Origin: Candidatus Bathyarchaeota archaeon
GTDB lineage: Archaea; Thermoproteota; Bathyarchaeia; Bathyarchaeales; Bathycorpusculaceae
Length of the DNA: 64,000 bases
Direction of reading: 5' to 3'
Assembly (NCBI GenBank): GCA_963782525.1
Contig: CAWAKC010000001.1
Coordinates: 96,001 to 160,000, forward strand
Under the pieces are notes generated by a model, which was given only the letters and a program-made list of their open reading frames with translations, did not search any database and was not told the origin of the DNA. The position numbers and the translations under genes were made by a program. Of this stretch, positions 4,485-62,823 are shown piece after piece. How positions within the stretch are numbered: position 1 is the stretch's first letter; each line of letters starts with the position of its first letter.

Positions 4485-4891
4485 TTTAATCCCCCAATTA
4501 TATAATATCTGTAGTATGACTTACTTTTCCCTATTAAATAATTACATTAACCAGTTGTAGTTGCACAGGCACAACCACATACGTCTATTAACAAAAATAA
4601 ACAATGATTATACCAAGCCCTCATCCGCCAAAGAAAGGGGAGCTAACATGAAAAAATCGAAAGACCTTTTATTTTCTTCTTTGATTGATCGAAAAACGAA
4701 GTGTAAATTTATCAGCTTATGCAGCCTCTACTCGAGCGCAAGTTACACTTGCACACATACAGGCGGTAACTACTGTGGCAAGTACAGGAAATTAAATAAC
4801 CTTAAAGAAAAATTAGGGAACCAAAACCAGACATTAATCGAAGTAGCACAATAATTTTCCTTCTGAAACAACATATATTTTTTCAATTGAA

Positions 4892-45828: not shown

Positions 45829-46661
45829 TTCTGCTCCAACTGTCTGAGGGTTTCCCGCAGGGCAACCATGAGGCCTTTGGCTTCGATTTCTGGAGGTTTC
45901 TCAATGTGGATTTTTTCGCCTTTCACTTTTTGTTTTACGAGTTCCTGCACTCGCTCCATGTAAGTGTCTTTGAATTCTGTTATATCGAATTCGCCTGAAA
46001 GGTCAGTGACGATTTTTACTGCAAGGTCTAATTCAGTTTTTTGGGGGGTTTCAAGCTTGTTTAAGGGTTCAAAATCTGTGGGGTCTACAACATCGTAGGC
46101 GTAACGTAGAGTCGTTAGAACCAAGGCTCCTTTGTAAGTGTGCAGAAGCGCTGGATATTCTTTGGTTCGGAGCATGATTCGTCCAGCGCCCGCCTTGTTT
46201 GTTTTTTCCAGCGCCTTTAACAATAAACTATAGGCATCTTTGCTTTTGTCAGGCAACAAAGCGTACGTTCTGTCAAAGTAGACAGGATCCACTGAAAAGT
46301 AATCGACAAACTTGCTTATGCGGATGCGCTTGTCGGATTCGGGTTTAGCCTCCTTAAGCTCCTTTTGGTCAAAGGTGATGTACTCGTTTTTAGCGACTTC
46401 GTAGCCGCGAACAACCTCATTCCAGGGCACTATTTTGTCATCTTTGGTGCACATCTTTACGTACTTTAAGGGTTGACCGTCGGTTTTATGCAGAAAATGA
46501 AACGCGATGCCCTTATCATAAATCATCGAAAACAACTTTACTGGAACATTCACCAAGCCAATCGTGATGTTTCCTGACCAAATGGATCTACTGGGGGCAG
46601 AAGCACTGGTTTTCTCTGTTGACTGATCGAGGTTTTCTTGTTCTTCTTGCTCTAAACTCAA
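45825..46661 (-). CDS. ku: Prokaryotic Ku DNA end-binding protein
   Basis: RSIWSGNITIGLVNVPVKL, VRGYE, DPVYFDRTY, FKDTY and LMVALRETL motifs. Confidence 0.95.
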   Translation of the reverse strand: MSLEQEEQENLDQSTEKTSASAPSRSIWSGNITIGLVNVPVKLFSMIYDKGIAFHFLHKTDGQPLKYVKMCTKDDKIVPWNEVVRGYEVAKNEYITFDQKELKEAKPESDKRIRISKFVDYFSVDPVYFDRTYALLPDKSKDAYSLLLKALEKTNKAGAGRIMLRTKEYPALLHTYKGALVLTTLRYAYDVVDPTDFEPLNKLETPQKTELDLAVKIVTDLSGEFDITEFKDTYMERVQELVKQKVKGEKIHIEKPPEIEAKGLMVALRETLRQLEQK

Positions 46662-46714
46662 AATTTTAACTCTCCAAAACCGTCAAAATCTGATTAAAAT
46701 AACTATGCGGCTTC

Positions 46715-46729
46715 AAAGGTTTAACCTTT
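46715..46729. promoter_or_regulatory. Palindrome AAAGGTT-T-AACCTTT overlapping the putative BRE/TATA of the ku operon
   Basis: Minus strand reads GAAAAAGGTTAAACC about 55-70 nt upstream of the ku TTG; GGAG RBS present. Confidence 0.4.
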
Positions 46730-46797
46730 TTCCGACTCCTATCATGATGAAAGAGAAGTGCCATGCTCTTATCTAAAAGTTTTTGTCCCCGCTTAGC

Positions 46798-48005
46798 TTA
46801 TGATTTTCTATTTGGGAACTGCACCATGTTGGCTTTCATGGCTGAAAGTGCTGCTTCTGCCTTTGGACCGCCTAAGTCTTTGGCAACTTCTTTTAGTTTC
46901 TCAGGGATGTTTATGTGCTGTGGATACCGTTCCAAGCATTTTTTGCATCCTTTACACAACGCCGCATCCGCTCGTGAACCCGTCAAACCACCCATCAGGA
47001 ACATAGCGTACATGCTACGAGTTTGTTGCTCGTCGCCTGACAAGTACAGTTCGTTGTAGGCTTGGAAGTTGCGGGGGATGTTTACGCCGTTTATGCAGGG
47101 CAAACAGTATTGGCAACCAGTGCAAGAAACCTTGAGGAGTTTTCGGTAAGCATCAGCAACCTGTTTTATCAATGCGAGTTCATTTGGATTCATGGAGTTT
47201 GGCAAGGCGACTTCAGCAGTTCTAATGTTTTCCATCACTTGGCTTTCCTCGTTCATGCCAGAAAGTACAAGGGTTACTTCAGGATGATTCCAAACCCACC
47301 GTAGTCCCCACTCAGCAGGACTTCGCTTAACTGCTGCATCATCATAGAATTTTTTAGCTTCGTTGGGTAGTTTATTTGCTAAGCTGCCGCCACGTAGAGG
47401 CTCCATAACCATGACTGCAAGCTTTTTTGAAGCAGCATACTTGAGACCTTCGGTACCCGCCTGCAGTTTTTCATCAAGGAAGTTGTACTGGATTTGGCAC
47501 ATAGTCCAGTCATTGGCTGCGATGATTTCTTTAAAAGTGGGAAGAGAACCATGGAAGGAGAATCCCATGTTAACGATTTTTCCTTCTGCTTTGGCTTTCT
47601 CCAAAAATTTTATGACTCCAAATCCCTGCAGTTTCTTCCAGAACTCGGCTTCTAACCCATGTAACAGGTAGTAGTCTATGTGTTCAGTTTGGAGTTTCTG
47701 CAACTGCAAGTTAAGCATTTTCTCCATATCTTCGGCCCGTCTAAGCATGAATGGGGTGAGTTTTGTGGCGACTTTGACTTTGTTTCGGTAGCCATCGAGC
47801 AGGGCTTTACCGAGGATTTTTTCGCTTTCACCCATATGGTAGGGGGAGCGGAGTCAACATAGTTTACGCCGTTGTCTATTGCAAGGCGGATTTGTTTAAT
47901 AGCGCGTTCTTCATCGACAACTTGCCCTTTCATGGGTAGACGCATACATCCGAACCCGAGGGCGGATAGTTTGTCGTTATTTTTTGGAACAATCCTGTAT
48001 TGCAT
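46798..48005 (-). CDS. Aldo/keto reductase with a C-terminal ferredoxin-like domain; frameshift at the G5 run near 47845
   Basis: LGFGCMRLP, VATKL, YYLLH, MEPLRGG and CTGCQYCLPC motifs. Confidence 0.9.
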
Positions 48006-48081
48006 GACTTCACACTCAAAGATTAGGTACTAAATAGCAAAAATAACGCATAACTTTTAAAGATTAACCAACTCTGAAAAA

Positions 48082-48957
48082 TTAGAGTTTCAAGACTGCT
48101 CTTTTTTCAAAAATATCTTTCCACGGATTACCCGTCCGCTTAACTACAGTAGAAATAGTGTAGTCGGTTGGGTTTATTCCTTTCTTCACTTCATTCCACT
48201 CCAAGGGAGTTGAAACGGTAGCGTCAGGCGTCGGACGCAAACTGTAGGGAACAACCATCGTGCGCAAAGGCGAATTCTGCAAGTAATCAGCAAAAACTTT
48301 GCCGGGCTTCTTGGTGTCCTTGAATTCGGATACAACCAGTTCACTTTCTTTTGTCAGCTCAACGCCAACTTCATGAACAAAAGCCCTCGCTTTCGCAAAG
48401 GAATATTCAGGTTCAATGGGAATTACAACATGCAACCCTTTTTTGCCCGAAGTCTTCACAAAAGGAGTAAGTCCTAAGTCAAGAAGCTTATCTTTCAACA
48501 ACAACGAAGCTTCCGCAGCGTCACTCAAAGTTGCAGGCGGTTCAGGGTCAACATCAAAGAACAGCAAGTCAGGCGTATCCAAGGCGTCGATTTTGGAGAA
48601 AGGCATATGGATTTCCAAAGAAGCCAAGTTCGCCAGCCAAATGAGCGTGTCTAAGTCATTGCAAACGATGTAGTAAACATCCCGCTTCGAGGTTGGTGAG
48701 TAGATTTTTTTGGTTTTGACCCAGTAGGGGGTTCCTTCGGGTGCATTCTTTTCGAAAAAACTAACCTTATCGCCCTCGATGCCATCTGGGTACCTGGTTA
48801 AAACTAAAGGTCTGTCGGCTATGACGGGGAGAATTTTTGGAGCCATCCGAATGTAATATTCAACAACTTGGCCTTTGGTTACTTTGTTTTTGGGATAGAA
48901 GACTTTGTCGAGGTTTTTTAAGTCAACTTTAGTTAAGTCTTTGAGTTCTTCGGTCAT
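48082..48957 (-). CDS. Stand-alone LigD polymerase (AEP primase-polymerase) domain
   Basis: NLDKVFYP, RYPDGI, FFEK, FDVDP, KTSGKKGLHV, DYLQN, PYSLR and STPLEW motifs. Confidence 0.93.
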   Translation of the reverse strand: MTEELKDLTKVDLKNLDKVFYPKNKVTKGQVVEYYIRMAPKILPVIADRPLVLTRYPDGIEGDKVSFFEKNAPEGTPYWVKTKKIYSPTSKRDVYYIVCNDLDTLIWLANLASLEIHMPFSKIDALDTPDLLFFDVDPEPPATLSDAAEASLLLKDKLLDLGLTPFVKTSGKKGLHVVIPIEPEYSFAKARAFVHEVGVELTKESELVVSEFKDTKKPGKVFADYLQNSPLRTMVVPYSLRPTPDATVSTPLEWNEVKKGINPTDYTISTVVKRTGNPWKDIFEKRAVLKL

Positions 48958-49219
48958 AGTTTTGCTCCAAAAATCAGCGTTATCTAATGTTAGGTGGAGC
49001 TTGTTTTTCTGCTTTTTGGAAGCCCACACATACCTTTGGCAGATTACACAAACGTTCAAGTTTTCCTTGAAAAACACGTTTTTTAGCAGTTACATCTATA
49101 TAGCTAAGGGGGCATTACTAGTAAATTGCGGAAGTTAATCTAGAAAAAGTAAATTTTAGGGCTAACTTAGTTTGCTGTTTCCAAGATTATTCGCTAAATT
49201 AAAGGAGAATAAAATAAGT

Positions 49220-49846
49220 ATGAAACCAAAAAAGCCCACCCTTGAAGACCAGCTTGCCTTCATCGCTACACAGCATGAAGTGTACCCAACCGAGCTCTTC
49301 CAAGCCTTAATTGAGGCAAAAGAGCAGGGTAAACCGATGTCGGTCTCAGATTTAACTGTAGAATACCGGGGAAATGTTACAACCCAAGCAATCTTTCTAA
49401 TTACAAAAGATACCAAAGTAGTGGCTCAGTTTCGGGTCCCAGATGAAACCCTTGCAAGAACCGACGTTTCATTCGATCATTCGATGGACACGAACAAAGT
49501 ACGCAAAGAAATCGCCCGCCAAAACCCAGCGCCCTCACACTACAAAATAGAGAATCTACGCGTCGGCATGAAAAAAATCAATGTTGCCGCCGAAGTTCTG
49601 CAGACCGCTGAACCCGCTAAAGTTCATACACAATTCCGAGACAACGCCGTCGTTTCTAACGCATCCATCGGGGATGATACAGGAAAAATTCTGCTTTGCC
49701 TGTGGGATCAACAGATAGGCTCAGTTCACGTCGGCGACTTCATAGAAGTCAAGAATGCTCATGTAGCCATGTTTAAAGGCGAAAAACAGCTGAGACTCGG
49801 TAAGAACGGGTCAATCACCATTTTAGAAAAACCCATAGAAAACTAA
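49220..49846 (+). CDS. OB-fold single-stranded nucleic-acid-binding protein (crenarchaeal SSB-like C-terminus plus an extra N-terminal domain)
   Basis: IGDDTGKILLCLWD and IEVKNAHVAMFKGEKQLRLGK. Confidence 0.8.
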   Translation: MKPKKPTLEDQLAFIATQHEVYPTELFQALIEAKEQGKPMSVSDLTVEYRGNVTTQAIFLITKDTKVVAQFRVPDETLARTDVSFDHSMDTNKVRKEIARQNPAPSHYKIENLRVGMKKINVAAEVLQTAEPAKVHTQFRDNAVVSNASIGDDTGKILLCLWDQQIGSVHVGDFIEVKNAHVAMFKGEKQLRLGKNGSITILEKPIEN

Positions 49847-50013
49847 ACGACACTTTATTTTTTTATTTAAAGCAGTCAATTTTTAATTTTCAGATAAAAA
49901 GCGTTTTCAAATATTGCCGATTTCTCAAGTATTAACAAAGGCAAAAAACCATTTTTACCAAACAGACAAGAAAGTGAAAATTAAAAAATAAAAATGTTGA
50001 TGAAAATACGTTT

Positions 50014-50394
50014 TTAAACGTATTTTTTGTCGTTATAGCAGTACCATCTTTGGTATTGAGGTATCCAAGTTAAGGGTCTACCGCATGTTGGGCACATCGG
50101 CTGTGTTGTCTGTGTTTGGGCTTGTTGGACTGGTTGAGCTACAGCTTGAGTTGGCTGATATGTGTTTTGAACCATCTGTGGCTTTAGAAGGATGAAGTCT
50201 GTTGCGGCTTGCACATCTTCCCATGCGACGGTTTGGATTTCGCCACTGTCACTTTCAACTGTTAGTGCAATTCCATTTTTTCCAACGGAGAAAGCGAGGT
50301 CCTTTACTTTTCCTATTAGGCGCCCTTTTGCATCTATAACTTGCATCGAAACTAATGCGTCTCTGGTTAATGGTTTATCAGTTGTTTTTTCCAT
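50014..50394 (-). CDS. PRC-barrel protein with a Q-rich linker and a C-terminal zinc-ribbon-like motif
   Basis: QVIDAKGRLIGKVKDL...AWEDVQAATDFILL, then CPTCG...WYCYND. Confidence 0.8.
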   Translation of the reverse strand: MEKTTDKPLTRDALVSMQVIDAKGRLIGKVKDLAFSVGKNGIALTVESDSGEIQTVAWEDVQAATDFILLKPQMVQNTYQPTQAVAQPVQQAQTQTTQPMCPTCGRPLTWIPQYQRWYCYNDKKYV

Positions 50395-50463
50395 CTTGAC
50401 TCACTACTCTTCTCTTAGGGAATTCGGGTTTAAAGTTTTTTCGTTTCTACCTCAAACCACAGT

Positions 50464-50985
50464 CTATTGTAGAGGGATTTCCCAGTAACTTATTATGTCG
50501 CCTTTCACCCATTTGCCGCCTAAACTTCTCACAACCTCATTGATGTCATCCCATTCAGCCTTCAAGAACACCACAGGCTTAGCAACCACACAATCCGCTT
50601 TAACGGTGAAGCTAAGCAATTTTCGCTGTTCAGGACTAAATTCATTCTCCATTTTGCTTGCCATCCGACTTGGCTGGGGCGTAGGGAGCTTCGCAACCAT
50701 AGATTTAGCTTCGAGCACAACTTGAGGTTTCATCCCTGCGGCAGGCTTAGATACAATTTTTAATTCCGTAGTTTTAGATAGAAGAATCTCTGGTATCGGC
50801 ATGGATTCGGCAACGTCCTCGAAACTTTCACTTCTGACAACCATGGAAATTTGCTTGGTGAACAGGTCCATTTTTACATCTAAAATTTCAGCATCGCTTG
50901 GCAAGGTAGAAGAAAATGGGGATGCTTTGCCTTGGAGCAAACCTGAAAGGGATTCAGGCGTTAGTTTGACGATTCGGATTTTCAT
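50464..50985 (-). CDS. Hypothetical protein (two small domains joined by a P/K-rich linker)
   Basis: Clean ATG-started ORF; EWDDINEVVRSLGGKWV motif. Confidence 0.65.
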   Translation of the reverse strand: MKIRIVKLTPESLSGLLQGKASPFSSTLPSDAEILDVKMDLFTKQISMVVRSESFEDVAESMPIPEILLSKTTELKIVSKPAAGMKPQVVLEAKSMVAKLPTPQPSRMASKMENEFSPEQRKLLSFTVKADCVVAKPVVFLKAEWDDINEVVRSLGGKWVKGDIISYWEIPLQ

Positions 50986-51068
50986 TTACAGCCGCTCAAA
51001 TTGCCTTTAGGGACTGATAACTTAAAAATATTTTCTATCTATATAAAAAAAGGAAGTTAAGAAAAAGT

Positions 51069-51698
51069 TTACGTGAGTTTGGTGGCTCGGCGATTGCGCC
51101 ATTCTACAAAAGTGCCCGAGTATACTCCCCAGCACATCAGCCTAGGTGTAACTGTTCTCAGTAAAGCTGGGCATACAGCAAGTTGAATGACGAAGTTGAG
51201 AGCAAAGGTAGCAAGCATCACAACTGCGAAGGAGAAATCGCCTATTAGGCTGAATCCTAGTACCCCGATATTGAATAGGTACGTATATTGCCATAGGATA
51301 TAGGCTGTTCCGATAAACAGTGTAATGGCGTAGATAGCAACAAGGATGAGAAGGCTTCTTTTTTGCTTACTGCTTACAGCATTTCTCGGGATGAGAAGCC
51401 AATTTAAGCCGAAGATGATTAACGCTGTTACTGATTCTACCCATGCAGCGTAAGGAGGTACTTGCTCAACATATACGCCGCCAATAAAAGCTCCGATCAT
51501 GCATCCTGCAAGACCACTCCACCCAAACCATACAGGAAAGACACCTAGTAAAATTACTGGAAGGTAAAGAAGGGTAAATCCGGGTAGCATACCTGGAGCT
51601 GATCCATAAAATAATATGGCGTAAATTGCGGCTACCATTGCAGTTATTGCAACTTGTTTTGCTTTACTTTGTTGGGCCATCATCAGTTCAATGTTCAA
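51069..51698 (-). CDS. QueT-like ECF-type membrane substrate-binding protein
   Basis: AITAMVAAIYAIL N-terminal helix, GCMIG, about 5-6 TMs. Confidence 0.55.
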   Translation of the reverse strand: MNIELMMAQQSKAKQVAITAMVAAIYAILFYGSAPGMLPGFTLLYLPVILLGVFPVWFGWSGLAGCMIGAFIGGVYVEQVPPYAAWVESVTALIIFGLNWLLIPRNAVSSKQKRSLLILVAIYAITLFIGTAYILWQYTYLFNIGVLGFSLIGDFSFAVVMLATFALNFVIQLAVCPALLRTVTPRLMCWGVYSGTFVEWRNRRATKLT

Positions 51699-51869
51699 TC
51701 CTTATGTTTTAGCAATGAACGGTTTCAAAGATGAGATTACATAAAAGCATTGTCATTCGTCTTACGGATGTAATACAAATATGGATGAGCGACGATTTTC
51801 AAATAGCCAACTATAAAAGTTCCCATCGCAGAGAAATAAAAGCATAAGCAAATCAATCGCTGGGAAAAA

Positions 51870-52796
51870 ATGACTAACCAACAGCGCAAAAAAATCGTTA
51901 TGGTCATCGCAGTCACAATCCTAATCGCCTTGAATCTATATACATTCATTGCAGCTTACCCAGAAACCTACACGCCCTCACCAGGCATCAACACTCAAGG
52001 CACCATACTCGCAAAAGATTTTTCGGCCTATTACGTGGGCGCATGGAGACTCTGGAATAATCCGTCGCAAGTTTTTCATTTCGGCGCATTAGGCGGAGCT
52101 GAGCCTCTCACGCCGCCGCAACCTGAAGCCTACAAGTACCTGCCCTCATTTCTAGTAATTGCATCGCCTTTGCTATCGCTGGATTACCAACAAGCCTTGT
52201 TAGCTTTTGACATTGTTCAGTTTTTGTTTCTACCCATAATGGCATGCATGCTCTACAAACTCTTAGAATCCAAACACCTTGCCGTAACCTTTGCTGTAAT
52301 GGTTATTGCATTGCTGCTGCCGTTCCCATCTCCGAATGGGGGCTTATCTCTAAGTTACTATTGGCAATGGGGTGAAGGACAAGCCAAAGTATTTCTCGCG
52401 TTTCTGCTTCTTCTCGGCTTCTACCTTGGCAGTAAAGGCAGGCCAGTGCTGTCGGGAGTTGCGTTGGCACTGGGATTTTTCGATGTAAGATTTGGCTTGC
52501 TTGCCCTTCCACTCTTCATAATGTACAACCGCAAAAACCTCAAAACAGCAATCCCAAGCGCAATCGCAGCATTAGCGCTCTCAAACATTTTGTTGCTTTA
52601 TCCAGGCATGGGCGCAGGGTTCATAAGCATGGTTTTTGGCTCAGGAATCACAACACCACTTTACTATTACGCGCTCATACCATTCCTCACTTTAATGGCA
52701 TTGATAGTTGTTAATTTCAAAGAGTTGGTTGCAGCATTCGATTACAAAAGACTCTTTGCCAGATTCACGGGTCCATCAGAAACAACAGAAAAGTAA
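51870..52796 (+). CDS. GT87 (DUF2029) GT-C glycosyltransferase
   Basis: DFSAYY, YKYLP and GQ motifs with multiple TMs. Confidence 0.75.
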   Translation: MTNQQRKKIVMVIAVTILIALNLYTFIAAYPETYTPSPGINTQGTILAKDFSAYYVGAWRLWNNPSQVFHFGALGGAEPLTPPQPEAYKYLPSFLVIASPLLSLDYQQALLAFDIVQFLFLPIMACMLYKLLESKHLAVTFAVMVIALLLPFPSPNGGLSLSYYWQWGEGQAKVFLAFLLLLGFYLGSKGRPVLSGVALALGFFDVRFGLLALPLFIMYNRKNLKTAIPSAIAALALSNILLLYPGMGAGFISMVFGSGITTPLYYYALIPFLTLMALIVVNFKELVAAFDYKRLFARFTGPSETTEK

Positions 52797-53745: not shown

Positions 53746-54270
53746 CTAACGGATAGATTGTTTTTCTATTATATACATTAACGCACGAATGCCTTTTAGT
53801 ATCTTGTGGGGAGAAGGCGGGTTGCCTAAAATTTTGAGGTCAACATGGAAAATTTTGTCTGCGCCACCCAGAACAGCGTACGAATCGTTGAGGATTCCGC
53901 ATCCGCAAGCGTCATCGCCTACTGCAATTACGAATTTTGGCGCGGGCATGGCTTCGTAAGTTTTCTTGGCTGCTATCTCCATGTTGCGTGTTATGGCGCC
54001 TGTAACTATGAGGACGTCAGCATGTCGGGGGGAAGCGACGAAGGATATGCCGAAGCGTTCAACATCGCAGTATGGGGTTGAGAGGTTATTGAGTTCAATT
54101 TCCGTTGAATTGTCGCTGCCTGCATCTAGTTCACGGATGGCTAAGCTTCCGCCAAAAATCTTGTCCACTTTTTCCTTGATTTGCACACCTATAGCTTCGA
54201 ATTCCGAATCGCTAAACTGGAATTGGTCGGTGGTCGGTTTTTTGAAGACGTTAGAGATTGCTTTTGCCAT
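53746..54270 (-). CDS. NuoB/HyfI-like small subunit (EhrS) lacking the canonical Fe-S cysteines
   Basis: DVERFGISFVASPRHAD and TYEAMPAPKFVIAVG; GSDNSTE, GDDA and GNPP replace GSCNGCE, GDCA and GCPP. Confidence 0.9.
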   Translation of the reverse strand: MAKAISNVFKKPTTDQFQFSDSEFEAIGVQIKEKVDKIFGGSLAIRELDAGSDNSTEIELNNLSTPYCDVERFGISFVASPRHADVLIVTGAITRNMEIAAKKTYEAMPAPKFVIAVGDDACGCGILNDSYAVLGGADKIFHVDLKILGNPPSPHKILKGIRALMYIIEKQSIR

Positions 54271-54274
54271 AATA

Positions 54275-55834
54275 TCACATATCCGTTCCTGCATATGAGA
54301 GGTTCATGCTCTTGTTGATTAATGGAAAATCTGGAACAATATTTCCAAGGACGGCATGCTCCATGGCTTGCCAGTTGCAGAAAGAAGCCGTCCGCACCTT
54401 GTAGCGGTAGATTAAGCCTTCTTTGATTTGGACCCAATGAACGTTCTGTCCCCGAGGTGCCTCCACAAGCGACAAAGCATATCCGTCTTTGATTTGGCAA
54501 GGCACCGAAATGTCTCCACTTACAAATTCATTGAGTAATCGCTGAATTATTTGTACTGAATCCCGCACTTCTTTAGCTTTAAGGTTGAATCGGGCAAGAA
54601 CATCACCGTTTGCCTGAGTTCTGCCTTTAAGTTTAAGCTCTGGGTACAAACCATACGGATGGGTTATTCGTGTATCGCACATTTTTCCCGAAGCCCTTGC
54701 AACGGGACCTGTAATGTGGAGGGGTTCAAGGATTTCCGCTCTAACTTTGCCCGTAGTCTCGAACCGGTCAACGACCGAAAAGTAGGTGCTGTCGATTCCT
54801 GTGGCATCGTTGAGCCTCTCCGGGAAAGATAAAAGATAATTTGAGAGGTTTTTGAGTGCCCCTTCTGGAACATCCTTGGTTAATCCACCAACTACTACGA
54901 TGCCTTTCATGAATCTGGAACCAGTCAAAGCGTCGTTTTGCCTAAAAATTTCTTCTCTAAGGATGAAGAATGGGCTGGCACCAACGGGGTAGGCTACATC
55001 GACGCACATACCTGCCAAGTCTCCAAGATGCGAATAAATCCGTTCAAGCTCAAACAGTATAGTCCTAAGTTGTAGGGCTCGTTTTGGCACTTCTGAACCG
55101 CAGATTTTTTCAACCGCATTACAGTAGCCAACGGCGTTAGCGACGGTTTCGTCCCCACTAATAGTTTCAGCGATTCGAACGCAGTCTTGAGGTTTTACAC
55201 CTTCCGCAAGCTTCTCCAATCCGCGGTGCTTGTAGAAAAGCCTCACTTCCAGATTAAAAATGGTCTCACCGATAACGCTAAATCTGAAGTGACCAGGCTC
55301 TATAATTCCAGCGTGAACTGGCCCTACTGGAATCTGGTAGACTCCTTCGCCTTCAACCTGCTTGAAATAGTATTCGTTTTGGTCGCCGGCCGTTGAGGTT
55401 TCTATTTTGCCATTTTTGAATGATTTTAAGAGCGGATGGAAGCCTGACGGGTAAGTCTCATGCAGGAACAGTCTTCTTGTGTCGAAGGCTCCTTGGAATT
55501 CTATTCCGAAGCCGTCGGTGATTTCCCGTTCGTACCAACATGCGGATGGGTAAGTTTTAGCGATAGAAACCGCGTGATTATCGGTTAGAGTAGATTGCAG
55601 GACCAGGATTTGCTTGAAACCGGGAATTTCGAACGTATAGAATAGGGTGAATCCTTTTTCAGCGAAATCTTCAACGCAGAATAGGCTTATGAGTTCAAAC
55701 CTGTTTTCGTCGAAGATGCCGATGGCTTTTTGTAAGTCGATTATGTTGAGGGACAAGTATACGTCGTTGTTTAAGCCTTCAGTTAAGGTGAGTTTTTGGC
55801 CAGAAATTGTTTCGAGTACTTCTTTGAGGTTCAT
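54275..55834 (-). CDS. HycE/HyfG-like NuoC+D fusion large subunit without NiFe motifs (EhrL)
   Basis: WYEREI, GPVHAGIIEPGHFRF, HRGLEK and EAPRG motifs; ETISGDE and NKSMNLSY in place of the CxxC motifs. Confidence 0.92.
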   Translation of the reverse strand: MNLKEVLETISGQKLTLTEGLNNDVYLSLNIIDLQKAIGIFDENRFELISLFCVEDFAEKGFTLFYTFEIPGFKQILVLQSTLTDNHAVSIAKTYPSACWYEREITDGFGIEFQGAFDTRRLFLHETYPSGFHPLLKSFKNGKIETSTAGDQNEYYFKQVEGEGVYQIPVGPVHAGIIEPGHFRFSVIGETIFNLEVRLFYKHRGLEKLAEGVKPQDCVRIAETISGDETVANAVGYCNAVEKICGSEVPKRALQLRTILFELERIYSHLGDLAGMCVDVAYPVGASPFFILREEIFRQNDALTGSRFMKGIVVVGGLTKDVPEGALKNLSNYLLSFPERLNDATGIDSTYFSVVDRFETTGKVRAEILEPLHITGPVARASGKMCDTRITHPYGLYPELKLKGRTQANGDVLARFNLKAKEVRDSVQIIQRLLNEFVSGDISVPCQIKDGYALSLVEAPRGQNVHWVQIKEGLIYRYKVRTASFCNWQAMEHAVLGNIVPDFPLINKSMNLSYAGTDM

Positions 55835-55839
55835 TTATT

Positions 55840-57315
55840 TCACCCTATTTTTAATTCTGACACGATGCTGTTGAGCAAGTTGGTTAGTTGCTGTGGGAAG
55901 AATACGCCCAAAGCAAAAACAGTGACCAAAAGGATTACAATTGGGATTTTCATGCCCAACGAAGCTTCATAACGCTTCACCCCTGGTGAATCTTCTTCTT
56001 TTTTGGACAGCAACTTAATCATAAAAATCCCGAATGCGCCAGCCACAAAAAGGAAAACTATCAGCAAACCCAAAAGCAAAAAAGGCGACAACTTGGTCGA
56101 TTCCAAAAGAATTGAAAGTTTGGGCAGAAAAATCGCTGATAGGGGCATGCCGATTATTGCTATTGTACCGAGTATCAGGCTCCATGCGGCGAAGGGTTGG
56201 AATTTGAAGACGTTTCTTATATGTTCCATTCGGACACTTTTATACTGATGGTGAAGGATACCTGCAGATAAGAAAAGGGAAGCCTTCGTGAAAGCATGTG
56301 CCAAAGTATAGAAAAGTAACCAGAACAACGCCAAAGGTGTTCCTATGCCTAACCCAACGAGAAGAAAACCCATGTTTTCCACGGTTGAGTAGCCGATGAG
56401 TTTCTTTAGGTTCACCTGGTTGAGCATTGTTAACGCTGCAATAACCATGCTTATCAAGCCAAAACCGATCAGGAACCAAGAAATTTTTGGCAACTCAGAG
56501 GTTTGGGATGCAATCGCGTAAACCCTGATAATGCCGTAGATGCCTACGCTTGTAACGCATCCTGATAGGATGGCGCTGACTGGGGCAGGAGCTTTAGAGT
56601 GCGCGCTGGGTAGCCAAGCGTGAAAAGGAACGATTCCTGATTTTGCAGCGAAGCCCACAAACGTGAAGATAAAGGCTGCAAACATTATTGCAGGTGACAG
56701 GGTGCTGGCGATTGACATTAATGAGCTCCAGTTGAGGGTGCCTGCACCAAAATTGTTTTCGGTTAGGGTAAAGATGAGTATTAAACCGATGAAAGAGAAG
56801 AGCATACAGGTGGAGGTTATGAAGACATACTTTAGAGTGGCTCCAATGTTTTTGGGCGCATTTAGGATGACTATGAGGACAGCTGAAAACGCGGTCGTTA
56901 ATTCTGCGAGAATCCAGAAGAGCGCAAGGTTGTCAGCAAAGAACGCGTATGTTATTGCCATTAAGAGCAGGTTGAAGGCGACGTAGAAGAGTTTGAGGCT
57001 GCTACGGTCCATCTCATGGATTTCGATGCTACCCTCAATGTAGCCCCTTGAATAAAGGGCTGCAAGCAGGAACAGGAACGCTGAAATCAAAATTTCGTAG
57101 AGGCTAAGATGGTCAACTAAGAAGTAGTTGCCCCCCAAAGAGTAGGTTGGTATTGCGGCGTAGACGAGGGTGAAGAGTGTGAGGACAAGGTAGGATGCTG
57201 GAAGTATGATTGATAAGATGTTCATGGTGCCGTGTGACTTAGAAACCACCGTTAGCAACAAGACCGCAACACCAACAAAGGCGTATATGGCTAATATCAG
57301 GTTTAATGATATCAT
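55840..57315 (-). CDS. hyfF: HyfF-like antiporter-type membrane subunit
   Basis: WILAELTT, KSGIVPFHAWLP, YSTVENMG and HAFTKASLF motifs. Confidence 0.88.
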   Translation of the reverse strand: MISLNLILAIYAFVGVAVLLLTVVSKSHGTMNILSIILPASYLVLTLFTLVYAAIPTYSLGGNYFLVDHLSLYEILISAFLFLLAALYSRGYIEGSIEIHEMDRSSLKLFYVAFNLLLMAITYAFFADNLALFWILAELTTAFSAVLIVILNAPKNIGATLKYVFITSTCMLFSFIGLILIFTLTENNFGAGTLNWSSLMSIASTLSPAIMFAAFIFTFVGFAAKSGIVPFHAWLPSAHSKAPAPVSAILSGCVTSVGIYGIIRVYAIASQTSELPKISWFLIGFGLISMVIAALTMLNQVNLKKLIGYSTVENMGFLLVGLGIGTPLALFWLLFYTLAHAFTKASLFLSAGILHHQYKSVRMEHIRNVFKFQPFAAWSLILGTIAIIGMPLSAIFLPKLSILLESTKLSPFLLLGLLIVFLFVAGAFGIFMIKLLSKKEEDSPGVKRYEASLGMKIPIVILLVTVFALGVFFPQQLTNLLNSIVSELKIG

Positions 57316-58031
57316 ATTTGTTCAGCCTCCAAATCCTTGATTTCCTCAGAAGTCTTTTTCTGTGAATCATGAAAAGGGTTGAGTCTTGCATGGAACTCTT
57401 CGATTGTTGAGTCGATGCCGAAAGCCAAGATAGTAGCGATAAGCGTTAACATTATCAAATCCACGATGATTAGAACCTCAATCAGCAGGGGAAGCTCAGT
57501 TAGGAAAAGGCTGAAGAGAACAACGCCGTTTTCCATCGTTAAGTAGCCAACGATGTTGGTTAGAGTTTGTTTTCTTGTGAAAATTACAATCATACCCATG
57601 AACACTATGGACATCCCGACGGTGGCGCCGAGAAAGAAGAGATTTGAATTAAAACGGTTCAACTCTGAGAGGAGACTGGAGAAGGCAAAGTAAACAAACA
57701 GTACGATAACTATACTGGCGAGCAACGCTGTTACGGGGCTGAGGAAATGGAACTTGACATCCCTTTTTATGTTAAGCCGCTTCTGCACGACTCCCATGAA
57801 ATGAGGAATAATCAACACTTTACTTACCAAAATAATGATTGCAAGGATCAGCAACGTTATGCTGCCTGTTTCGACAAAATACAGCAGCGCCATCGCTGCT
57901 AACAGCAAAGACTGGAAAGCATACGTCTTTATGAGGGAACGGATATCGCGTTTCATAATTATGACAGCTGCAGTTGCTAGAATCAGAACAATTAGGATTT
58001 GTGCAAGGTTTCCGGTTGAAGCGATTATCAT
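57312..58031 (-). CDS. hyfE: HyfE-like membrane subunit
   Basis: YAFQSLLL, KVLIIP and GYLTMENG motifs. Confidence 0.85.
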   Translation of the reverse strand: MIIASTGNLAQILIVLILATAAVIIMKRDIRSLIKTYAFQSLLLAAMALLYFVETGSITLLILAIIILVSKVLIIPHFMGVVQKRLNIKRDVKFHFLSPVTALLASIVIVLFVYFAFSSLLSELNRFNSNLFFLGATVGMSIVFMGMIVIFTRKQTLTNIVGYLTMENGVVLFSLFLTELPLLIEVLIIVDLIMLTLIATILAFGIDSTIEEFHARLNPFHDSQKKTSEEIKDLEAEQI

Positions 58032-58984
58032 GCAAACACCTCAATAATTAAGGTTATAATCGAGAGGAAAAGTGCGACTGCAAAAAGCCCTGGAAGACGG
58101 AATAAGCGGGATTTTGCGCATGAGGACTCAAATAACCCGATGATAATAGCGAGCACGATGGCTTTGAGAATAAAGGCGCCAAGCGAAATCAGGATTGGAA
58201 GAGCCGAGAAATCTGATGTTAATCCCCATGGAACAAGAATGTTGATGAGAATTCCCATGAGTAGTAGCTGTTTCATTGCGCTCGACATTTCCATCATAGC
58301 CAGGTTCTTTCCTGATTGCTCAAGAATCATGGCTTCATGAATCATTGTTAATTCGAGGTGGGTTTCTGGGTTATCCACGGGAACTCTGGCGGATTCTACA
58401 ATAATGACGATGAAGATCGAGATTGATACCAGGATTAGAACAGGATTAACCAGAATATTTGAGGCTAAGGCACCTCTGAACATGTCGGGCAGGTTTATGG
58501 TTTTGAAAGCAAACGCAAGGGCGGCAAAGACGACTATTATTACGGGTTCGATTAGTGCGGATATTGCCATTTCTCGGCTGCTTCCCATGCCGCCAAACGT
58601 GCTGCCCGCGTCAAGTCCGGAGAGTGCCATGAAAAACTTTGCCATCGCCAGCAAGTAGAGGAAGAGGATTATGTTTCCCACTAAATCGTTGGGTTGCGGT
58701 ATGACGACGAGCGGAACGAAAAGGCTTGCGACCAAAAGTGCTGCAATGTTTACAAGAGGTGTAATGCGCATAATCCATGACGAATTTGTAGAGTAGACGG
58801 TTTCTTTTTTGAGCAGCTTAGCCAAGTTGCGGTAAGTCTGGAGAATAGGTGGACCACGCCTTTTCTGAGCATGTGCTTTCACTATTTTTATTAAACTAAT
58901 GAATAAAGGCGAGATTAACAGGACAAAGAGCATGTTTAGGATGCCGTATGCGATTAGTGTCAAGTAATCCATTATGCAAACCAC
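58028..58984 (-). CDS. hyfC: HyfC/NuoH-like membrane subunit
   Basis: RRGPPILQ, GGMGSSRE and RVPVDNPETHLELTMIHEAM motifs. Confidence 0.9.
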   Translation of the reverse strand: MVCIMDYLTLIAYGILNMLFVLLISPLFISLIKIVKAHAQKRRGPPILQTYRNLAKLLKKETVYSTNSSWIMRITPLVNIAALLVASLFVPLVVIPQPNDLVGNIILFLYLLAMAKFFMALSGLDAGSTFGGMGSSREMAISALIEPVIIVVFAALAFAFKTINLPDMFRGALASNILVNPVLILVSISIFIVIIVESARVPVDNPETHLELTMIHEAMILEQSGKNLAMMEMSSAMKQLLLMGILINILVPWGLTSDFSALPILISLGAFILKAIVLAIIIGLFESSCAKSRLFRLPGLFAVALFLSIITLIIEVFA

Positions 58985-60912
58985 CAGATTATCAGTAGAA
59001 ATACAACTATAGTTACAAAGGCGTACGCGATGTGCAAGTCAGCGTCACCCCGCTGGACGTTGTTCACTTTTAGGGATATTTTTCTGATAATGGCTGCGGC
59101 GGGCAGGTAGATGCGCTCTTCGAAGAAATTTATCAAGTGAATTTCTGCTTTTCCATCCTTGAAAATTACGTTTTTATCGTCGTAGTAGTTTCGTTCGGAT
59201 TTCTTTTGGGTTCGGAAAATCGATTTTAGGATGGTGACTATTGGTTCGGAGAATCCTGAAGCGGTGTACTCCATCTTGGCTGTTTGGGTTGGGAATCCGC
59301 AACCCCATGTTTCAGCGATTCGTTCCCGCCTGTTAGCAACCTCACGCATGGCAATGAATGTAAACACATAGAAGCCTCCTAGTATTAACCCAATGAAGAG
59401 CATGTTTGGCAGCGGGAACGAGAAACCCAAAACACTGAAAAGCTGCAGAGAGAAAACTCCCAACGCAATACATAAAGCGGCTAGTATGGCTGGTCCAATA
59501 ATCATGAGTTTAGGTGATTCCTTAGCCATCTTTGCCTCGTTTGAGCGCGGCAATGCAAGGAAAGTTATCCCAAATGCCTTTACAAAACACGCCGCCGCAA
59601 GTGCACTTGTTAGAGCAAACACCGCCAATGAAGCAATCAAAATCACTTCAAGGAATGGGTTGGCTAAAGCTGCAGATTGAAAGAAGGCTTGAAAAATCAT
59701 GAGTTCACTTACGAACCCATTAAAAGGCGGCAACGCCGAAATTGAGACGGCACCGATTAAGAAAAGTAGGGCGGTTTTGGGCATACGCTTGATTAAGCCA
59801 CCCATTTCCTCGATGTTGCGTGTACCAGTAGCGTTGACTATGCTGCCGCTGGTCATGAAGAGCAGGCTTTTGAAGATGGCGTGGTTTAGGGTGTGGAATA
59901 GGGCACCTGCGAGGGCAAGAAATGCGATGGCTTCTAGCCCAGCGAGCGAGAAGATTACGAATAGTCCGACGCCGATTAAGATGATGCCGATGTTTTCGAT
60001 GCTGTGATAGGCGAGTAAACGTTTGATATCATGTTCTTTTAGAGCATAGATTACACCTAGTACCGCCGAGGTTGTTCCTGCAGCGAGGATTAGGATGCCC
60101 CACCAAGTTTGCATCGGCAAAAGCAATATAAAGCGCACTAAGCCGTAAATGGCGACTTTTATCATAACTCCTGACATAAGTGCGGATATGTTGGAAGGGC
60201 TTGCGGGATGGGCGTGTGGCAGCCATTTGTGGAAGGGTATGATTCCTGCTTTTATGCCGAAGCCCAAGAACAGAAATACAAATGCTATTGAAGTGATTAC
60301 GGGGTCTGCCCGTATCTGCCCCATATTGAAGGTGCCGGTCACAACGTAGATGAAGAGGAATGCGAAAAGAAGGAAAAGCGTACTTAAGTGGGTCATTATG
60401 AAGTAGAACATGCCTGCTTTCTGGGTGTCCTTTTTCTCAAACTCGACCATCACAAGTAAAAATGAGGAGAGCGCCATGATTTCCCAGAAAAACAGGAACG
60501 AAAACATGGAAAATGATGCGACAACTAGAACCATGGAGACGATAAAGATGTTCATGAAGGACACAATCAGATTTTTCCTGCCCTCGTGCTCAGTGTGCTC
60601 AACATAAGAAAACGAATAAATCGCCACTGCAACCGAAACAATCGCGACTAATACGAGAAAGAACGCCGCTAACCTATCGACAAAGAATGAGAACTGAAAA
60701 GAGGGCACCATCTGGTAGGCGAGGAGCGAAAAACTTTTGTTAGAGAGGATTATTTCCAAGGCAAAAGCCAAGATGGCGACACCAGCGATACAGGTGAATA
60801 TCAGAGAAGCCTGTCTTGGAGTTTTGCTGTTTGTCATTTTTGAGGCTAAAAGAGGCAAAAGGATTGCTACAAGAAATGAAGCTAAGCCTAACGGAAACAA
60901 GATTTCGAGCAT
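58972..60912 (-). CDS. hyfB: HyfB-like antiporter-type membrane subunit
   Basis: FWEIM, KAGIIPFHKWLP, LAYHSIENIG, NHAIFKSLLF, PPFNGFVSE and TWGCG motifs. Confidence 0.9.
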   Translation of the reverse strand: MLEILFPLGLASFLVAILLPLLASKMTNSKTPRQASLIFTCIAGVAILAFALEIILSNKSFSLLAYQMVPSFQFSFFVDRLAAFFLVLVAIVSVAVAIYSFSYVEHTEHEGRKNLIVSFMNIFIVSMVLVVASFSMFSFLFFWEIMALSSFLLVMVEFEKKDTQKAGMFYFIMTHLSTLFLLFAFLFIYVVTGTFNMGQIRADPVITSIAFVFLFLGFGIKAGIIPFHKWLPHAHPASPSNISALMSGVMIKVAIYGLVRFILLLPMQTWWGILILAAGTTSAVLGVIYALKEHDIKRLLAYHSIENIGIILIGVGLFVIFSLAGLEAIAFLALAGALFHTLNHAIFKSLLFMTSGSIVNATGTRNIEEMGGLIKRMPKTALLFLIGAVSISALPPFNGFVSELMIFQAFFQSAALANPFLEVILIASLAVFALTSALAAACFVKAFGITFLALPRSNEAKMAKESPKLMIIGPAILAALCIALGVFSLQLFSVLGFSFPLPNMLFIGLILGGFYVFTFIAMREVANRRERIAETWGCGFPTQTAKMEYTASGFSEPIVTILKSIFRTQKKSERNYYDDKNVIFKDGKAEIHLINFFEERIYLPAAAIIRKISLKVNNVQRGDADLHIAYAFVTIVVFLLIIWWFA

Positions 60913-61335
60913 AAAGTGCCTCTATGTTGAAGAATTAACCCATGGCACCGTCTGACTGAGCGCCTCGATGAAACCGCCTGAAAAAGATAGCCAAATAGTC
61001 AGTTTTGGTATTAGTCGGGTTCTCATGTTAAGTCTATCGCCCACCACAACCATATAGAAAAGCTTTTTGGCGCTGAATCGACAGAAAACCAAGGGATGAT
61101 TAAATGTGCAAGTGAACACCATTTTATAGCGAAAAATAACAACCAACATGCTGTCGTAATACTATTAAGATAAACGATTAGAAAATATACTCCGCAATGA
61201 GAAAATGTTTAATATCAATCAAACAAAAATAAGCCCGCAAAAACTCCAATCAATTTGCTCACCGGGATGCCAAGTAGAACAAGCGTAGTTTAGAGCCAAT
61301 TGGGCACAAACTAAATACTTCGATAGCCATACGTT

Positions 61336-62211
61336 TTGTCTATGGGTTACCAACCTCGAAAAACATCACCTAAGGGCGCAATTCACGGGTACAAAAAGCC
61401 TCTGCGGGAAAGAAGGAAAGATAGAAAACGGGTTCGCAAAGGACTTGTTCAACCGTTACCCGAAGAAAAGCATGTTCCATCTGAGCGGGAAATTGTAGGC
61501 GTTACCCTCAAACGACTGCACACTTTAGGCATCCAAAAGTTTGGGTCGTCACCCTTCAGCGAACACTTCGACCGATGGCTAATTAACGTAACGTCTGTTC
61601 TGGAAGAGTTTGAGTCACACCCTGCCATGGGAGTTGACGATGAATTTATTCAGGAGCGCTCACAAGCACTCGCCACCATTAAGCAGCAACTGGATAAATT
61701 AAGCCGTAATGAATCTACGCTTGACCAAGAATTAAAAAACCTCTCTGACCAGAGAACCCGCCTCAAGCAAATCAACTCCGAATACTCAACTTCAGCAGGG
61801 ATTATTAGAGGTCAAAGAAACCGTGAAATCAAACGCCTCAATGCTTCAATTAATCTTCTAAAAAAGGAACAGGATGAAGTGATCCGCATGAAAACCGGAT
61901 TTTTCCACGGCATCTCCAAAAAAGATAGGGAACAAAAAGAAGGTGCAATAGCGCAAGAAATAAATGATAAGCAAACAGAGCTGGAATTAGTTATGCTGGA
62001 TTTTAGCGCTAAACTTAAAGAACTCAAAGAAGAATACGATACAAAAAGGGAGCCGGTGCTTGAAGAAATAAAAAAATTTCGCAGAACAATCCAAACCCTC
62101 GAGATGGACTGTTCCTTAGAGGAGCGATGGTTTGGCTGTGAAGCCATCATAGACACCGTAAACTCATTTCTTCTGAGAAAATCAACCCAACCCAAGGGAG
62201 ATCTGAACTAA
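61336..62211 (+). CDS. Hypothetical coiled-coil protein
   Basis: Basic N-terminus, QKFGSSPFSEHF, long E/K/L heptad region. Confidence 0.7.
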   Translation: MSMGYQPRKTSPKGAIHGYKKPLRERRKDRKRVRKGLVQPLPEEKHVPSEREIVGVTLKRLHTLGIQKFGSSPFSEHFDRWLINVTSVLEEFESHPAMGVDDEFIQERSQALATIKQQLDKLSRNESTLDQELKNLSDQRTRLKQINSEYSTSAGIIRGQRNREIKRLNASINLLKKEQDEVIRMKTGFFHGISKKDREQKEGAIAQEINDKQTELELVMLDFSAKLKELKEEYDTKREPVLEEIKKFRRTIQTLEMDCSLEERWFGCEAIIDTVNSFLLRKSTQPKGDLN

Positions 62212-62684
62212 AAATCCTCTTTTACTAAGCGATAGAAATACCAATCCTTTAAGCATTTGGCTTTGTTTTTTTCATAGAATTTCTGCGCTGACTTGTTCCA
62301 TGTTAGAACGGTAAACTCTATTCTGCCGCATCCTTCCCGTTTAGCTGTAGCTTTTATGAAGTCGAACATTTTTTCGCCTACCCCATTTCGTCTGAACTCT
62401 TCAAGGACGTAGATGTCTTCGAGGAAGAGTGTTGGCAATGCGAGGAAGCTTGAATAGGTGAAGAAGAATATGATGTATGAAACGTACCTGTCGTCGACTT
62501 TTCCTATGAACGCTTGATACTTGGGCTTGTCAGATAAACAGTCCCTCCGCAACCTCTGTTTTGCCTCTACATTAGGCGGGGATAGCTTCTCGTACTCAGC
62601 AAGCTTTGCGATTAAACCCAGAAAATCATCGAATGTTTTTTCATCGACTTTTTCGATAACTATCGAGGATTCTTCTTTGTGCAT
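62208..62684 (-). CDS. GNAT N-acetyltransferase (diamine/SSAT-like)
   Basis: LAEYEKL, LFLEDIYV...RRNGVG and VLTWNKSAQKFY motifs. Confidence 0.9.
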   Translation of the reverse strand: MHKEESSIVIEKVDEKTFDDFLGLIAKLAEYEKLSPPNVEAKQRLRRDCLSDKPKYQAFIGKVDDRYVSYIIFFFTYSSFLALPTLFLEDIYVLEEFRRNGVGEKMFDFIKATAKREGCGRIEFTVLTWNKSAQKFYEKNKAKCLKDWYFYRLVKEDF

Positions 62685-62823
62685 GAAATGTATTGGTGAC
62701 CTTGAGATTAAAAGTACTTACTATAGAGAAATGAAATTTTGTTGTTTAAAAGCTCCATCAGATAATTTTTGGTTCCTTTTAATAAGTTAAAGTTATAAAT
62801 AATTACTTACCAAAAAGGTAACC

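Follow-up and report, generated by a model that had tools for sequence, protein, structure and literature searches.

The energy-converting (Ech) hydrogenase-related complexes, or Ehr, were earliest described from Geobacter sulfurreducens and are widespread in bacteria and archaea; genome papers, in the excerpts available, model them as redox-driven pumps and call their function unknown. The name ehrABCDLS is used for the same gene set in the same order as that described here, with the function again given as unknown in the available parts of those papers (PMC6688271, PMC6147122, PMC10284858, PMC4378227). The DNA analysed here, referred to as the window, is a 64-kb stretch (C1:96001-160000) of the 2.87-Mb, 12-contig genome of Candidatus Bathyarchaeota archaeon, and it carries on its minus strand, at 53746-60912, an intact ehrABCDLS operon of six open reading frames (ORFs) with zero internal stops (Table 1). 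From ehrA to ehrS the genes overlap by 13, 4 and 4 nt, are then separated by a 5 nt gap, and overlap by 20 nt at the ehrL-ehrS junction; if EhrS starts instead at M9 (ATG 54268-54270) the last junction becomes a 4-nt gap, and most EhrS homologs appear to begin near M9 because 105 of 121 aligned rows have a gap at query position 6. EhrA and EhrD score above the NCBIfam cut-offs of NF006418 (883 bits, cut-off 794) and NF006427 (594 bits, cut-off 511), respectively, and EhrC matches NF008556, "hydrogenase 4 membrane subunit", at 66.8 bits, under its cut-off of 136. Pfam and NCBIfam searches found no Fer4 family in any of the six Ehr proteins, and there is no NuoI/HycF/HyfH-type ferredoxin ORF within the operon. 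A preliminary description of this DNA, made from its letters alone, had reported six tightly packed genes free of frameshifts with no ferredoxin gene (NuoI/HyfH) among them, and both statements hold.

Apart from Ehr itself, with which the window operon shares its six genes, their order and the lack of a separate NuoI/HyfH gene, the closest described systems are membrane-bound hydrogenases, antiporters and complex I. The E. coli formate hydrogenlyase Hyc (7Z0S)/Hyf supplies the best solved matches for five subunits, including HycC, HycD, HycE and HycG, and both have the antiporter residues and the acidic loop seen in HycD, but the NiFe site, the proximal cluster, the HycF/HyfH or HycB ferredoxin and the formate dehydrogenase are missing here. 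With no NiFe site, proximal cluster or ferredoxin, the window complex cannot be a hydrogenase. In Pyrococcus furiosus, the membrane-bound hydrogenase (MBH; 6CFW) combines a NiFe site with three clusters and a sodium module of the Mrp type; its MbhJ is the best fold match to EhrS, MbhH matches EhrA and EhrD, and MbhM matches EhrB, but neither the NiFe site nor the three clusters nor the sodium module is present in the window complex. Mrp antiporters (6Z16, 7QRU, 7D3U), which are MrpA-G sets without NuoH-, NuoB- or NuoCD-like subunits, have MrpA and MrpD proteins that match EhrA (E 4.7e-48 to 1.4e-31) with the same charged residues, and they need no redox cofactor, as is proposed below for the window complex; MrpB, MrpE, MrpF and MrpG are not recognisable here, whereas the peripheral arm (EhrL and EhrS) and the NuoH-like subunit are extra. 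Of the 11-14 subunits that make up complex I (Nuo/Fpo), the operon encodes only relatives of NuoB, CD and H plus two antiporter-like homologs; missing are NuoA, I, J, K, the third antiporter-like subunit and the N2 ligands. Finally, DabAB and the cyanobacterial NDH-1MS (CupA/B) systems use a complex-I-type ion-translocating module to drive a non-redox reaction, with a dedicated anhydrase-like subunit that was not found in or near the Bathyarchaeia operon.

The window operon departs from most other Ehr in its small subunit, which lacks the usual four cysteines. The four cluster ligands of E. coli HycG (7z0s_G, E=3.6e-26) align to EhrS D61, T64, D128 and N158, whose codons, GAC, ACG, GAC and AAC, are each two or three changes away from a Cys codon (TGY), confirming both the replacement of the [4Fe-4S] ligands by D/T/D/N and the distance of at least two substitutions from Cys that the preliminary description had reported. 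In an alignment of 121 rows, consisting of the query and 120 homologs of 70-95% identity from a protein collection clustered at 90%, D61 and D128 are invariant (121/121 each), position 158 is N in 116 rows, D in 4 and T in 1, and position 64 is more variable (T 72, A 26, V 21, I 1, P 1). Among 25 orthologs D61 is encoded by GAC 20 times and GAT 5 times, D128 by GAT 13 times and GAC 12 times, and N158 by AAC 14 times and AAT 10 times (the remaining ortholog has GAT); since both synonymous codons are in use at D61, D128 and N158, the residues themselves are held by selection. The nearby CGC motif, put forward in the preliminary description as a source of alternative ligands, is a weaker candidate than it looked: C130 is Cys in 121/121 rows and is the single conserved Cys of the entire small subunit, but C132 is Cys in only 71 of them. 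Cys is frequent at the C130 position in cluster-binding relatives too, for example in GACGCSGG. A cluster held by CGC/Asp ligands appears unlikely, because C132 is variable and EhrS keeps one conserved Cys only. An AlphaFold2 model of EhrS (mean predicted local distance difference test score, pLDDT, 90.9) has MbhJ (6cfw_J) as its best Foldseek match, with a target-normalised template modelling score (TM) of 0.89 and a root-mean-square deviation of 2.0 Å; the predicted model and its match confirm the fold only.

All six ehr genes are under strong purifying selection. Ratios of nonsynonymous to synonymous change (dN/dS) were computed pairwise by the Nei-Gojobori method (NG86) for pairs with dS 0.05-2 only, and their medians are 0.067 for EhrA (73 pairs), 0.057 for EhrB (67), 0.058 for EhrC (41), 0.066 for EhrD (55), 0.078 for EhrL (31) and 0.098 for EhrS (89), values that are rough because the median dS, 1.15-1.39, is near saturation. 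The D/T/D/N pattern is thus that of a conserved clade under purifying selection, and the contrary possibility, that close homologs keep the cysteines and this copy is under relaxed selection, fails on the invariance of D61 and D128 and on the low ratios of EhrS and EhrL.

The large subunit has no NiFe site, again as first described: the four NiFe cysteines of HycE (7z0s_E, E=8.1e-66) align to EhrL S226, E229, S513 and G516, the histidine of the HycE NiFe motif aligns to N233, and neither of the group 4 [NiFe]-hydrogenase motifs, RxCGxCxxxH (N-terminal) and DPCxxCxxH/R (C-terminal), occurs in EhrL. The former motifs are nevertheless strictly kept. In 20/20 orthologs 8 of the 16 positions of the N-terminal one (A222, E223, S226, G227, D228, E229, A232 and N233) and 12 of the 14 positions of the C-terminal one are invariant. 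Much of this conservation extends beyond the Bathyarchaeia: the PVGPVHAGIIEPGHFRF stretch recurs with single conservative changes only in all Ehr rows examined, cluster or not, the SGD core of the former N-terminal motif is common to all of these rows including the cluster-keeping ones, and the NKS-x-N/D-x-SY-x-G-x-D core of the former C-terminal motif is in nearly all of them; the Bathyarchaeia-type clade has lost the arginine before SGD and has a few other clade-specific changes. As these pocket motifs recur with and without the cluster, a role of the EhrL pocket that is independent of the neighbouring cluster is suggested.

The membrane arm, in contrast to these lost ligand sites, retains the charged residues of an ion-translocating module. 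EhrA matches HycC (7z0s_C, E=3.4e-72) as well as MbhH and MrpA/D, EhrB matches HycD (7z0s_D, E=5.3e-45), with which its acidic loop between transmembrane helices 5 and 6 (TM5-6) aligns, and also MbhM, and EhrD matches MbhH (6cfw_H, E=3.4e-38). The antiporter-like Glu/Lys/His motifs noted earlier are present and are invariant in orthologs, as EhrA E144, K221, H228, K229, H340, H344, K348 and E403 (19/19) and EhrD E138, K225, H232, H340 and K344 (21/21), with K399 of EhrD in 20/21. EhrB D125, E138, E146, E197, R200, D204, E207, E211, E217, E286, K291 and R293 are invariant in 20/20 orthologs and EhrC E167 and E179 in 18/18; the placement of these charged residues in helices was read from the alignments and is not the output of a prediction tool.

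Most Ehr keep the cluster. Of the best 150 representatives of 50%-identity clusters, 105 were left once rows gapped at a ligand site, those of under 95 core residues and those lacking the G-x-P-P context had been dropped, and in these all four cysteines are present in 85, none in 13 and one to three in 7. With a profile of 12 cluster-less sequences as the seed, a scan of metagenomes gave at least 80 loci ranked by likeness to the cluster-less query; because of this ranking, and because only the matches listed are counted, the proportions are not population estimates. Among the matches listed are 81 small subunits, 69 with all four cysteines and 12 with none or one, and 54 small-large pairs with a large subunit of at least 300 amino acids (aa), in 53 loci (L080 holds two). 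All 54 paired large subunits have 0/4 NiFe cysteines and are therefore Ehr, and their partners keep all four Fe-S cysteines in 48/54 cases and not in 6/54. The assumed baseline of the preliminary description, in which Ehr complexes lack NiFe ligands and usually have a Cys-intact small subunit, is thus correct for these matches, and the window operon is a minority cluster-less Ehr variant. A separate ferredoxin-like ORF lies between the L and S genes in only 2/80 loci among the matches listed. We note that 25 of the 69 cluster-keeping small subunits among the matches listed are at least 200 aa long (200-378 aa) and have extra cysteines. When six long small subunits were searched for Fer4 families, those of L098, L064 and L059 scored above cut-off and those of L043, L052 and L067 below it; judged by sequence, the Cys-rich N-terminal extension could be a ferredoxin-NuoB fusion able to replace the missing NuoI-type subunit. 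The Ehr family thus ranges from forms with a ferredoxin domain and the cluster, through forms with the cluster only, to forms with neither.

A quick IQ-TREE analysis (LG+G4; 50 EhrL sequences, 536 columns) was made from large subunits of 480-640 aa with a paired small subunit, near-duplicate loci being excluded, and 7 sequences from the Bathyarchaeia set. The 8 forms with D[A/T]DN at the four ligand sites fall into a single EhrL clade (support 100) whose long stem measures 0.82 changes per column, and the sister of this clade (support 96) consists of two cluster-keeping sequences, L043 and L052, whose small subunits have the four cysteines and a Cys-rich ferredoxin-like N-terminal extension that is absent from the window EhrS. 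Because the sister keeps both, the electron wire was lost on the long stem leading to the D[A/T]DN clade. The remaining cluster-poor forms (TEGD, SCDD and TCDD) make up a separate EhrL clade of 5 (support 93), and they differ also in gene order, S-A-B-C-D-L as against A-B-C-D-L-S in the D[A/T]DN clade. When all 13 cluster-poor rows are constrained to one group, the log-likelihood falls by 24.2 units, and a single origin of all cluster-poor Ehr is rejected under LG+G4 by the approximately unbiased (AU) test at p=0.022, for a grouping that was named after the tree had been seen. The best 119 matches to the cluster-less profile each have at most one of the four cysteines; those with names come from Methanomicrobiales, Altiarchaeota, Staskawiczbacteria, Paceibacterota and Kerfeldbacteria, further cluster-less representatives are labelled Chloroflexota or Dehalococcoidia, and one member of the D[A/T]DN clade, L095, has a small subunit identical to a protein on record for a Dehalococcoidales metagenome-assembled genome (MAG). 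Two loci have tandem Ehr sets on one contig, L076 with A-B-C-D-L-S followed by A-B-C-D and L080 with L-S followed by A-B-C-D-L-S. The L043 small subunit has an exact counterpart recorded under Candidatus Nitrosotalea bavarica, whose genus, Nitrosotalea, comprises acidophilic ammonia oxidisers. Methylacidiphilum and Sulfobacillus, both acidophiles, are other Ehr hosts named in the available portions of the literature, and there are thus hints of a link between Ehr and acid habitats.

Orthologs of the window operon are present in 24 loci (L006-L029) of named assemblies at 64-95% identity, mostly from Bathyarchaeia but including one MAG labelled Methanomicrobiales and one labelled Aenigmatarchaeota. 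The six-gene cassette is complete in 21 of the 24, contig ends cutting the other three, and across these loci the six ehr genes are constant while the flanking genes vary. No redox gene lies beside the operon in the window, and no redox gene is a conserved neighbour in the related loci. The window genome carries one Ehr operon. Orthologs are in 1/10 genomes sampled from the genus and 2/200 from the family, and 150 other genomes sampled from the class have none, only paralogs of 42-48% identity. In a 100% complete genome of the same genus (G038, locus L112) the 8.5-kb segment that bears the operon is missing from the syntenic site: bases 132-2971 of L112 correspond to window 50013-52772 and bases 4168-5583 to window 61294-62713, so that the flanks are collinear, and 1.2 kb of unrelated DNA lies between them. 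In another genome, G311, the ortholog and the flank genes are on different contigs. By its distribution the cassette is accessory and self-contained, a unit which Bathyarchaeia of peat and soil appear to acquire and lose.

The mostly archaeal clade to which the window operon belongs appears to have lost the last redox cofactor site of the Ehr family, and we infer that its complex does not transfer electrons. The non-redox derivative proposed in the preliminary description is supported by the sequences, since the cysteines are gone clade-wide, the genes are under purifying selection, and the only other NuoB-type gene of the genome has an operon of its own (see below). The likeliest reading and the most economical mechanism, to which we give about even odds, is that ehrABCDLS is here a functional accessory operon for a non-redox, secondary ion-gradient-coupled cation/proton translocator. 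Under this proposal the cofactor-free EhrL-EhrS cap would form a polar, acidic cavity able perhaps to accommodate a hard cation, water or some small substrate, and the cavity could gate or feed the acidic TM5-6 loop and charged-residue channel of EhrB. Several points weigh against such a translocator. We know of no Ehr with a demonstrated transport function. Since the cluster persists in most Ehr, in some together with extra ferredoxin domains, the ancestral activity may be redox and the function of this clade quite different from that of its relatives. The strict upkeep of the former NiFe-site motifs across all Ehr would equally suit a catalytic pocket instead of a gate. AlphaFold2 ignores cofactors, which makes the confident EhrS model uninformative on metal content, and the dN/dS values suffer from the near-saturated dS given above. 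Lastly, the ATP synthase and carbonic-anhydrase contexts described next come from the other cluster-poor clade and not from Bathyarchaeia.

The main rival is that the complex is an ion-gradient-driven non-redox enzyme in which the EhrL/EhrS pocket, alone or with a loose partner, catalyses for example vectorial CO2 hydration, by analogy with DabAB or cyanobacterial NDH-1 CupA/B a reaction powered by ion flow through the membrane arm; we consider this unlikely. Genomic context that bears on both readings comes from the S-first, cluster-poor loci, 4/8 of which among the matches listed are adjoined by F-type ATP synthase genes, with atpD-atpC directly upstream of ehrS in L031, L039 and L045 and atpB just downstream of ehrL in L036; three ATP synthase queries (blastp) had no match in the loci of the 69 cluster-keeping small subunits or of the D[A/T]DN clade among the matches listed, and the adjacency fits a role tied to ion gradients, a point in favour of the translocator. 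For the rival speak two of these loci, which have genes of different anhydrase classes directly after ehrL. In L039 the product is a gamma-carbonic anhydrase of the Cam/CcmM type (3kwc E=9.1e-37, 1qrf E=3.5e-31), in which His occupies what we take to be the Zn-ligand positions, and its 90% cluster includes Moranbacteria proteins; in L045 it is a weak CsoSCA-like match (PF20686 29 bits, cut-off 21.5; TIGR02701 34 bits, cut-off 241; 2fgy 5.4e-4). The acidic and polar D/T/D/N sites of the small subunit would suit a hard metal, and the former active-site motifs of EhrL are conserved in all Ehr rows examined, as would be expected of a working pocket. However, there are only two such loci, both in the other clade and one of them with a weak match, no anhydrase-like gene lies near the operon in the window or in the 24 related genome loci, two anhydrase queries (tblastn, E<=1e-3; other anhydrase classes not searched) had no match in the window genome, and the operon is without the dedicated anhydrase-like subunit used by the DAB and Cup systems. 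The ATP synthase and anhydrase contexts are thus a lead from 2-4 loci of related lineages outside Bathyarchaeia and not proof.

These contexts and the tree together allow a broader conjecture, which we put forward tentatively and would not rate as probable: cluster-less Ehr may have arisen at least twice, in archaea such as Bathyarchaeia and in a clade that includes candidate phyla radiation (CPR) bacteria, as true non-redox machines coupling an ion gradient to cation exchange, serving pH or sodium homeostasis, or to vectorial CO2 hydration beside the ATP synthase. Since the presence or absence of the cluster makes no difference to the EhrL pocket motifs, electron transfer might then not be the core activity of the family, the cluster being perhaps a dispensable structural or regulatory element.

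That the complex is still a redox enzyme, which would take electrons from a soluble or separately encoded partner or hold its cofactor by non-cysteine ligands, seems to us decidedly improbable. The Asp-ligated [4Fe-4S] clusters known to us keep three Cys, whereas EhrS has one conserved Cys. Nor is there a ferredoxin gene or domain in the operon or a conserved redox neighbour in related loci, and neither the cluster nor the ferredoxin-like extension, both kept by the sister lineage, survives in the clade. In favour of a residual redox role are the retention of the cluster by most Ehr (48/54) and the published assumption, in the portions of the literature available, that Ehr couple cytoplasmic redox reactions to ion translocation, with formate dehydrogenases proposed as partners (PMC6349859), while Geobacter Ehr subunits rise on formate according to a source likewise available in part (PMC7894505).

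That EhrS is a spare and the complex assembles with a Cys-intact small subunit encoded elsewhere, a possibility that the preliminary description had raised, we consider very improbable. The sole other NuoB-type gene is in a ten-gene operon on contig C3 ordered nuoA-B-CD-H-I-J-K-L-M-N, which has its own ferredoxin subunit, both NiFe motifs in its large subunit and four cysteines in its NuoB-like subunit, and which is thus a complex-I-ordered putative group 4 hydrogenase. A Cys-intact candidate does therefore exist in the genome, but it sits in a complete operon with its own large and ferredoxin subunits, which tells against this partnership, and its product is only 45% identical to EhrS. EhrS, for its part under purifying selection, accompanies the cassette in 24 related loci. 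The C3 operon spans C3:101185-110922 (locus L111, 686-10423), and its three antiporter-like subunits are encoded together with NuoA, B, H, I, J, K and a fused CD. The genome has three further PF01058 genes, which adjoin NiFe large subunits of their own and look like small subunits of cytoplasmic (group 3-type) hydrogenases. Finally, we find it scarcely credible that the operon is decaying or a relic without function, or that sequencing errors explain its substitutions. Every recognised cofactor ligand is indeed absent, and most relatives lack the rare cassette, but all six frames are intact with dN/dS of 0.06-0.10, identical residues recur in 120 homologs from many assemblies, the substituted codons are two or three changes from Cys and the functional membrane residues are invariant.

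The Ehr complex type is already known, and the apparently new part is the cluster-less state with its dual origin. Neither the loss of the small-subunit Fe-S cysteines nor the convergent origin, the ferredoxin-fused sister and the ATP synthase and anhydrase contexts are mentioned in the partly available Ehr literature that was searched, the founding papers and supplements lying outside the search; a full-text search likewise found no report joining Bathyarchaeia with Ehr and none on Ehr cryo-electron microscopy with hydrogenase and antiporter. The twofold evolution of a well-conserved Ehr that lacks any cofactor site is an argument that the scaffold can function with no electron transfer. Such a complex is the simplest experimental entry point to the family, since no NiFe maturation and probably no Fe-S maturation would be needed. 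If the translocator or carbon-related readings are true, a role in ion homeostasis or inorganic carbon would bear on the membrane energetics of slow-growing peat and soil anaerobes and of ultra-small non-respiring bacteria, and would add a third functional state to complex I history beside hydrogenase and quinone reductase.

Table 1. Features of the ehrABCDLS operon and its surroundings (window coordinates)
Feature	Coordinates	Strand	Basis
ehrA, HyfB/HycC/NuoL-like antiporter-type subunit, 646 aa	58972..60912	-	PF00361 4.5e-60, PF00662, NF006418
ehrB, HyfC/HycD/NuoH-like subunit, 318 aa	58028..58984	-	PF00146 9.6e-34
ehrC, HyfE-like small membrane subunit, 239 aa	57312..58031	-	NF008556 E=2.4e-18, below cut-off
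ehrD, HyfF/MbhH-like antiporter-type subunit, 491 aa	55840..57315	-	PF00361 6e-49, NF006427
ehrL, NuoC-NuoD/HycE-like large subunit without NiFe ligands, 519 aa	54275..55834	-	PF00329, PF00346, PF00374
ehrL, former N-terminal NiFe motif, residues 222-237	55124..55171	-	translation checked
ehrL, former C-terminal NiFe motif, residues 506-519	54278..54319	-	translation checked
ehrS, NuoB/HycG-like small subunit without Fe-S cysteines, 182 aa (174 aa from M9)	53746..54294	-	PF01058 2e-22
ehrS, codons of D61 (54112-54114, GAC) and T64 (54103-54105, ACG), at the CxxC ligand sites	54103..54114	-	HycG alignment
ehrS, codons of D128 (53911-53913, GAC), at the third ligand, and C130 (53905-53907)	53905..53913	-	HycG alignment
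ehrS, codon of N158 (AAC), at the GCPP cysteine site	53821..53823	-	HycG alignment
Operon-bearing 8.5-kb segment missing from the syntenic site of a same-genus genome	52773..61293		comparison with G038 (locus L112)

The neighbours of the operon in the window are Ku, LigD domains, an Ssb-like protein, a PRC-barrel protein and unassigned proteins. Several of these belong to an end-joining repair cluster at 44368-49846, made up of a LigD ligase and phosphoesterase (44368-45828), Ku (45825-46661), a LigD primase-polymerase (48082-49077) and an Ssb-like OB-fold protein (49172-49846), and within it lies an aldo/keto reductase with a weak 4Fe-4S domain match (46798-47835). Farther away on the minus strand, ORFs of 292 and 210 aa that overlap each other (20478-21861) together resemble, by eye, a single nucleotide-sugar dehydrogenase split by a frameshift, and an extremely hydrophobic ORF of 642 aa at 18037-19965, rich in Leu, Val, Phe, Ser and Gly, accounts for the extreme composition of that segment (GC skew -0.43, AT skew +0.51).

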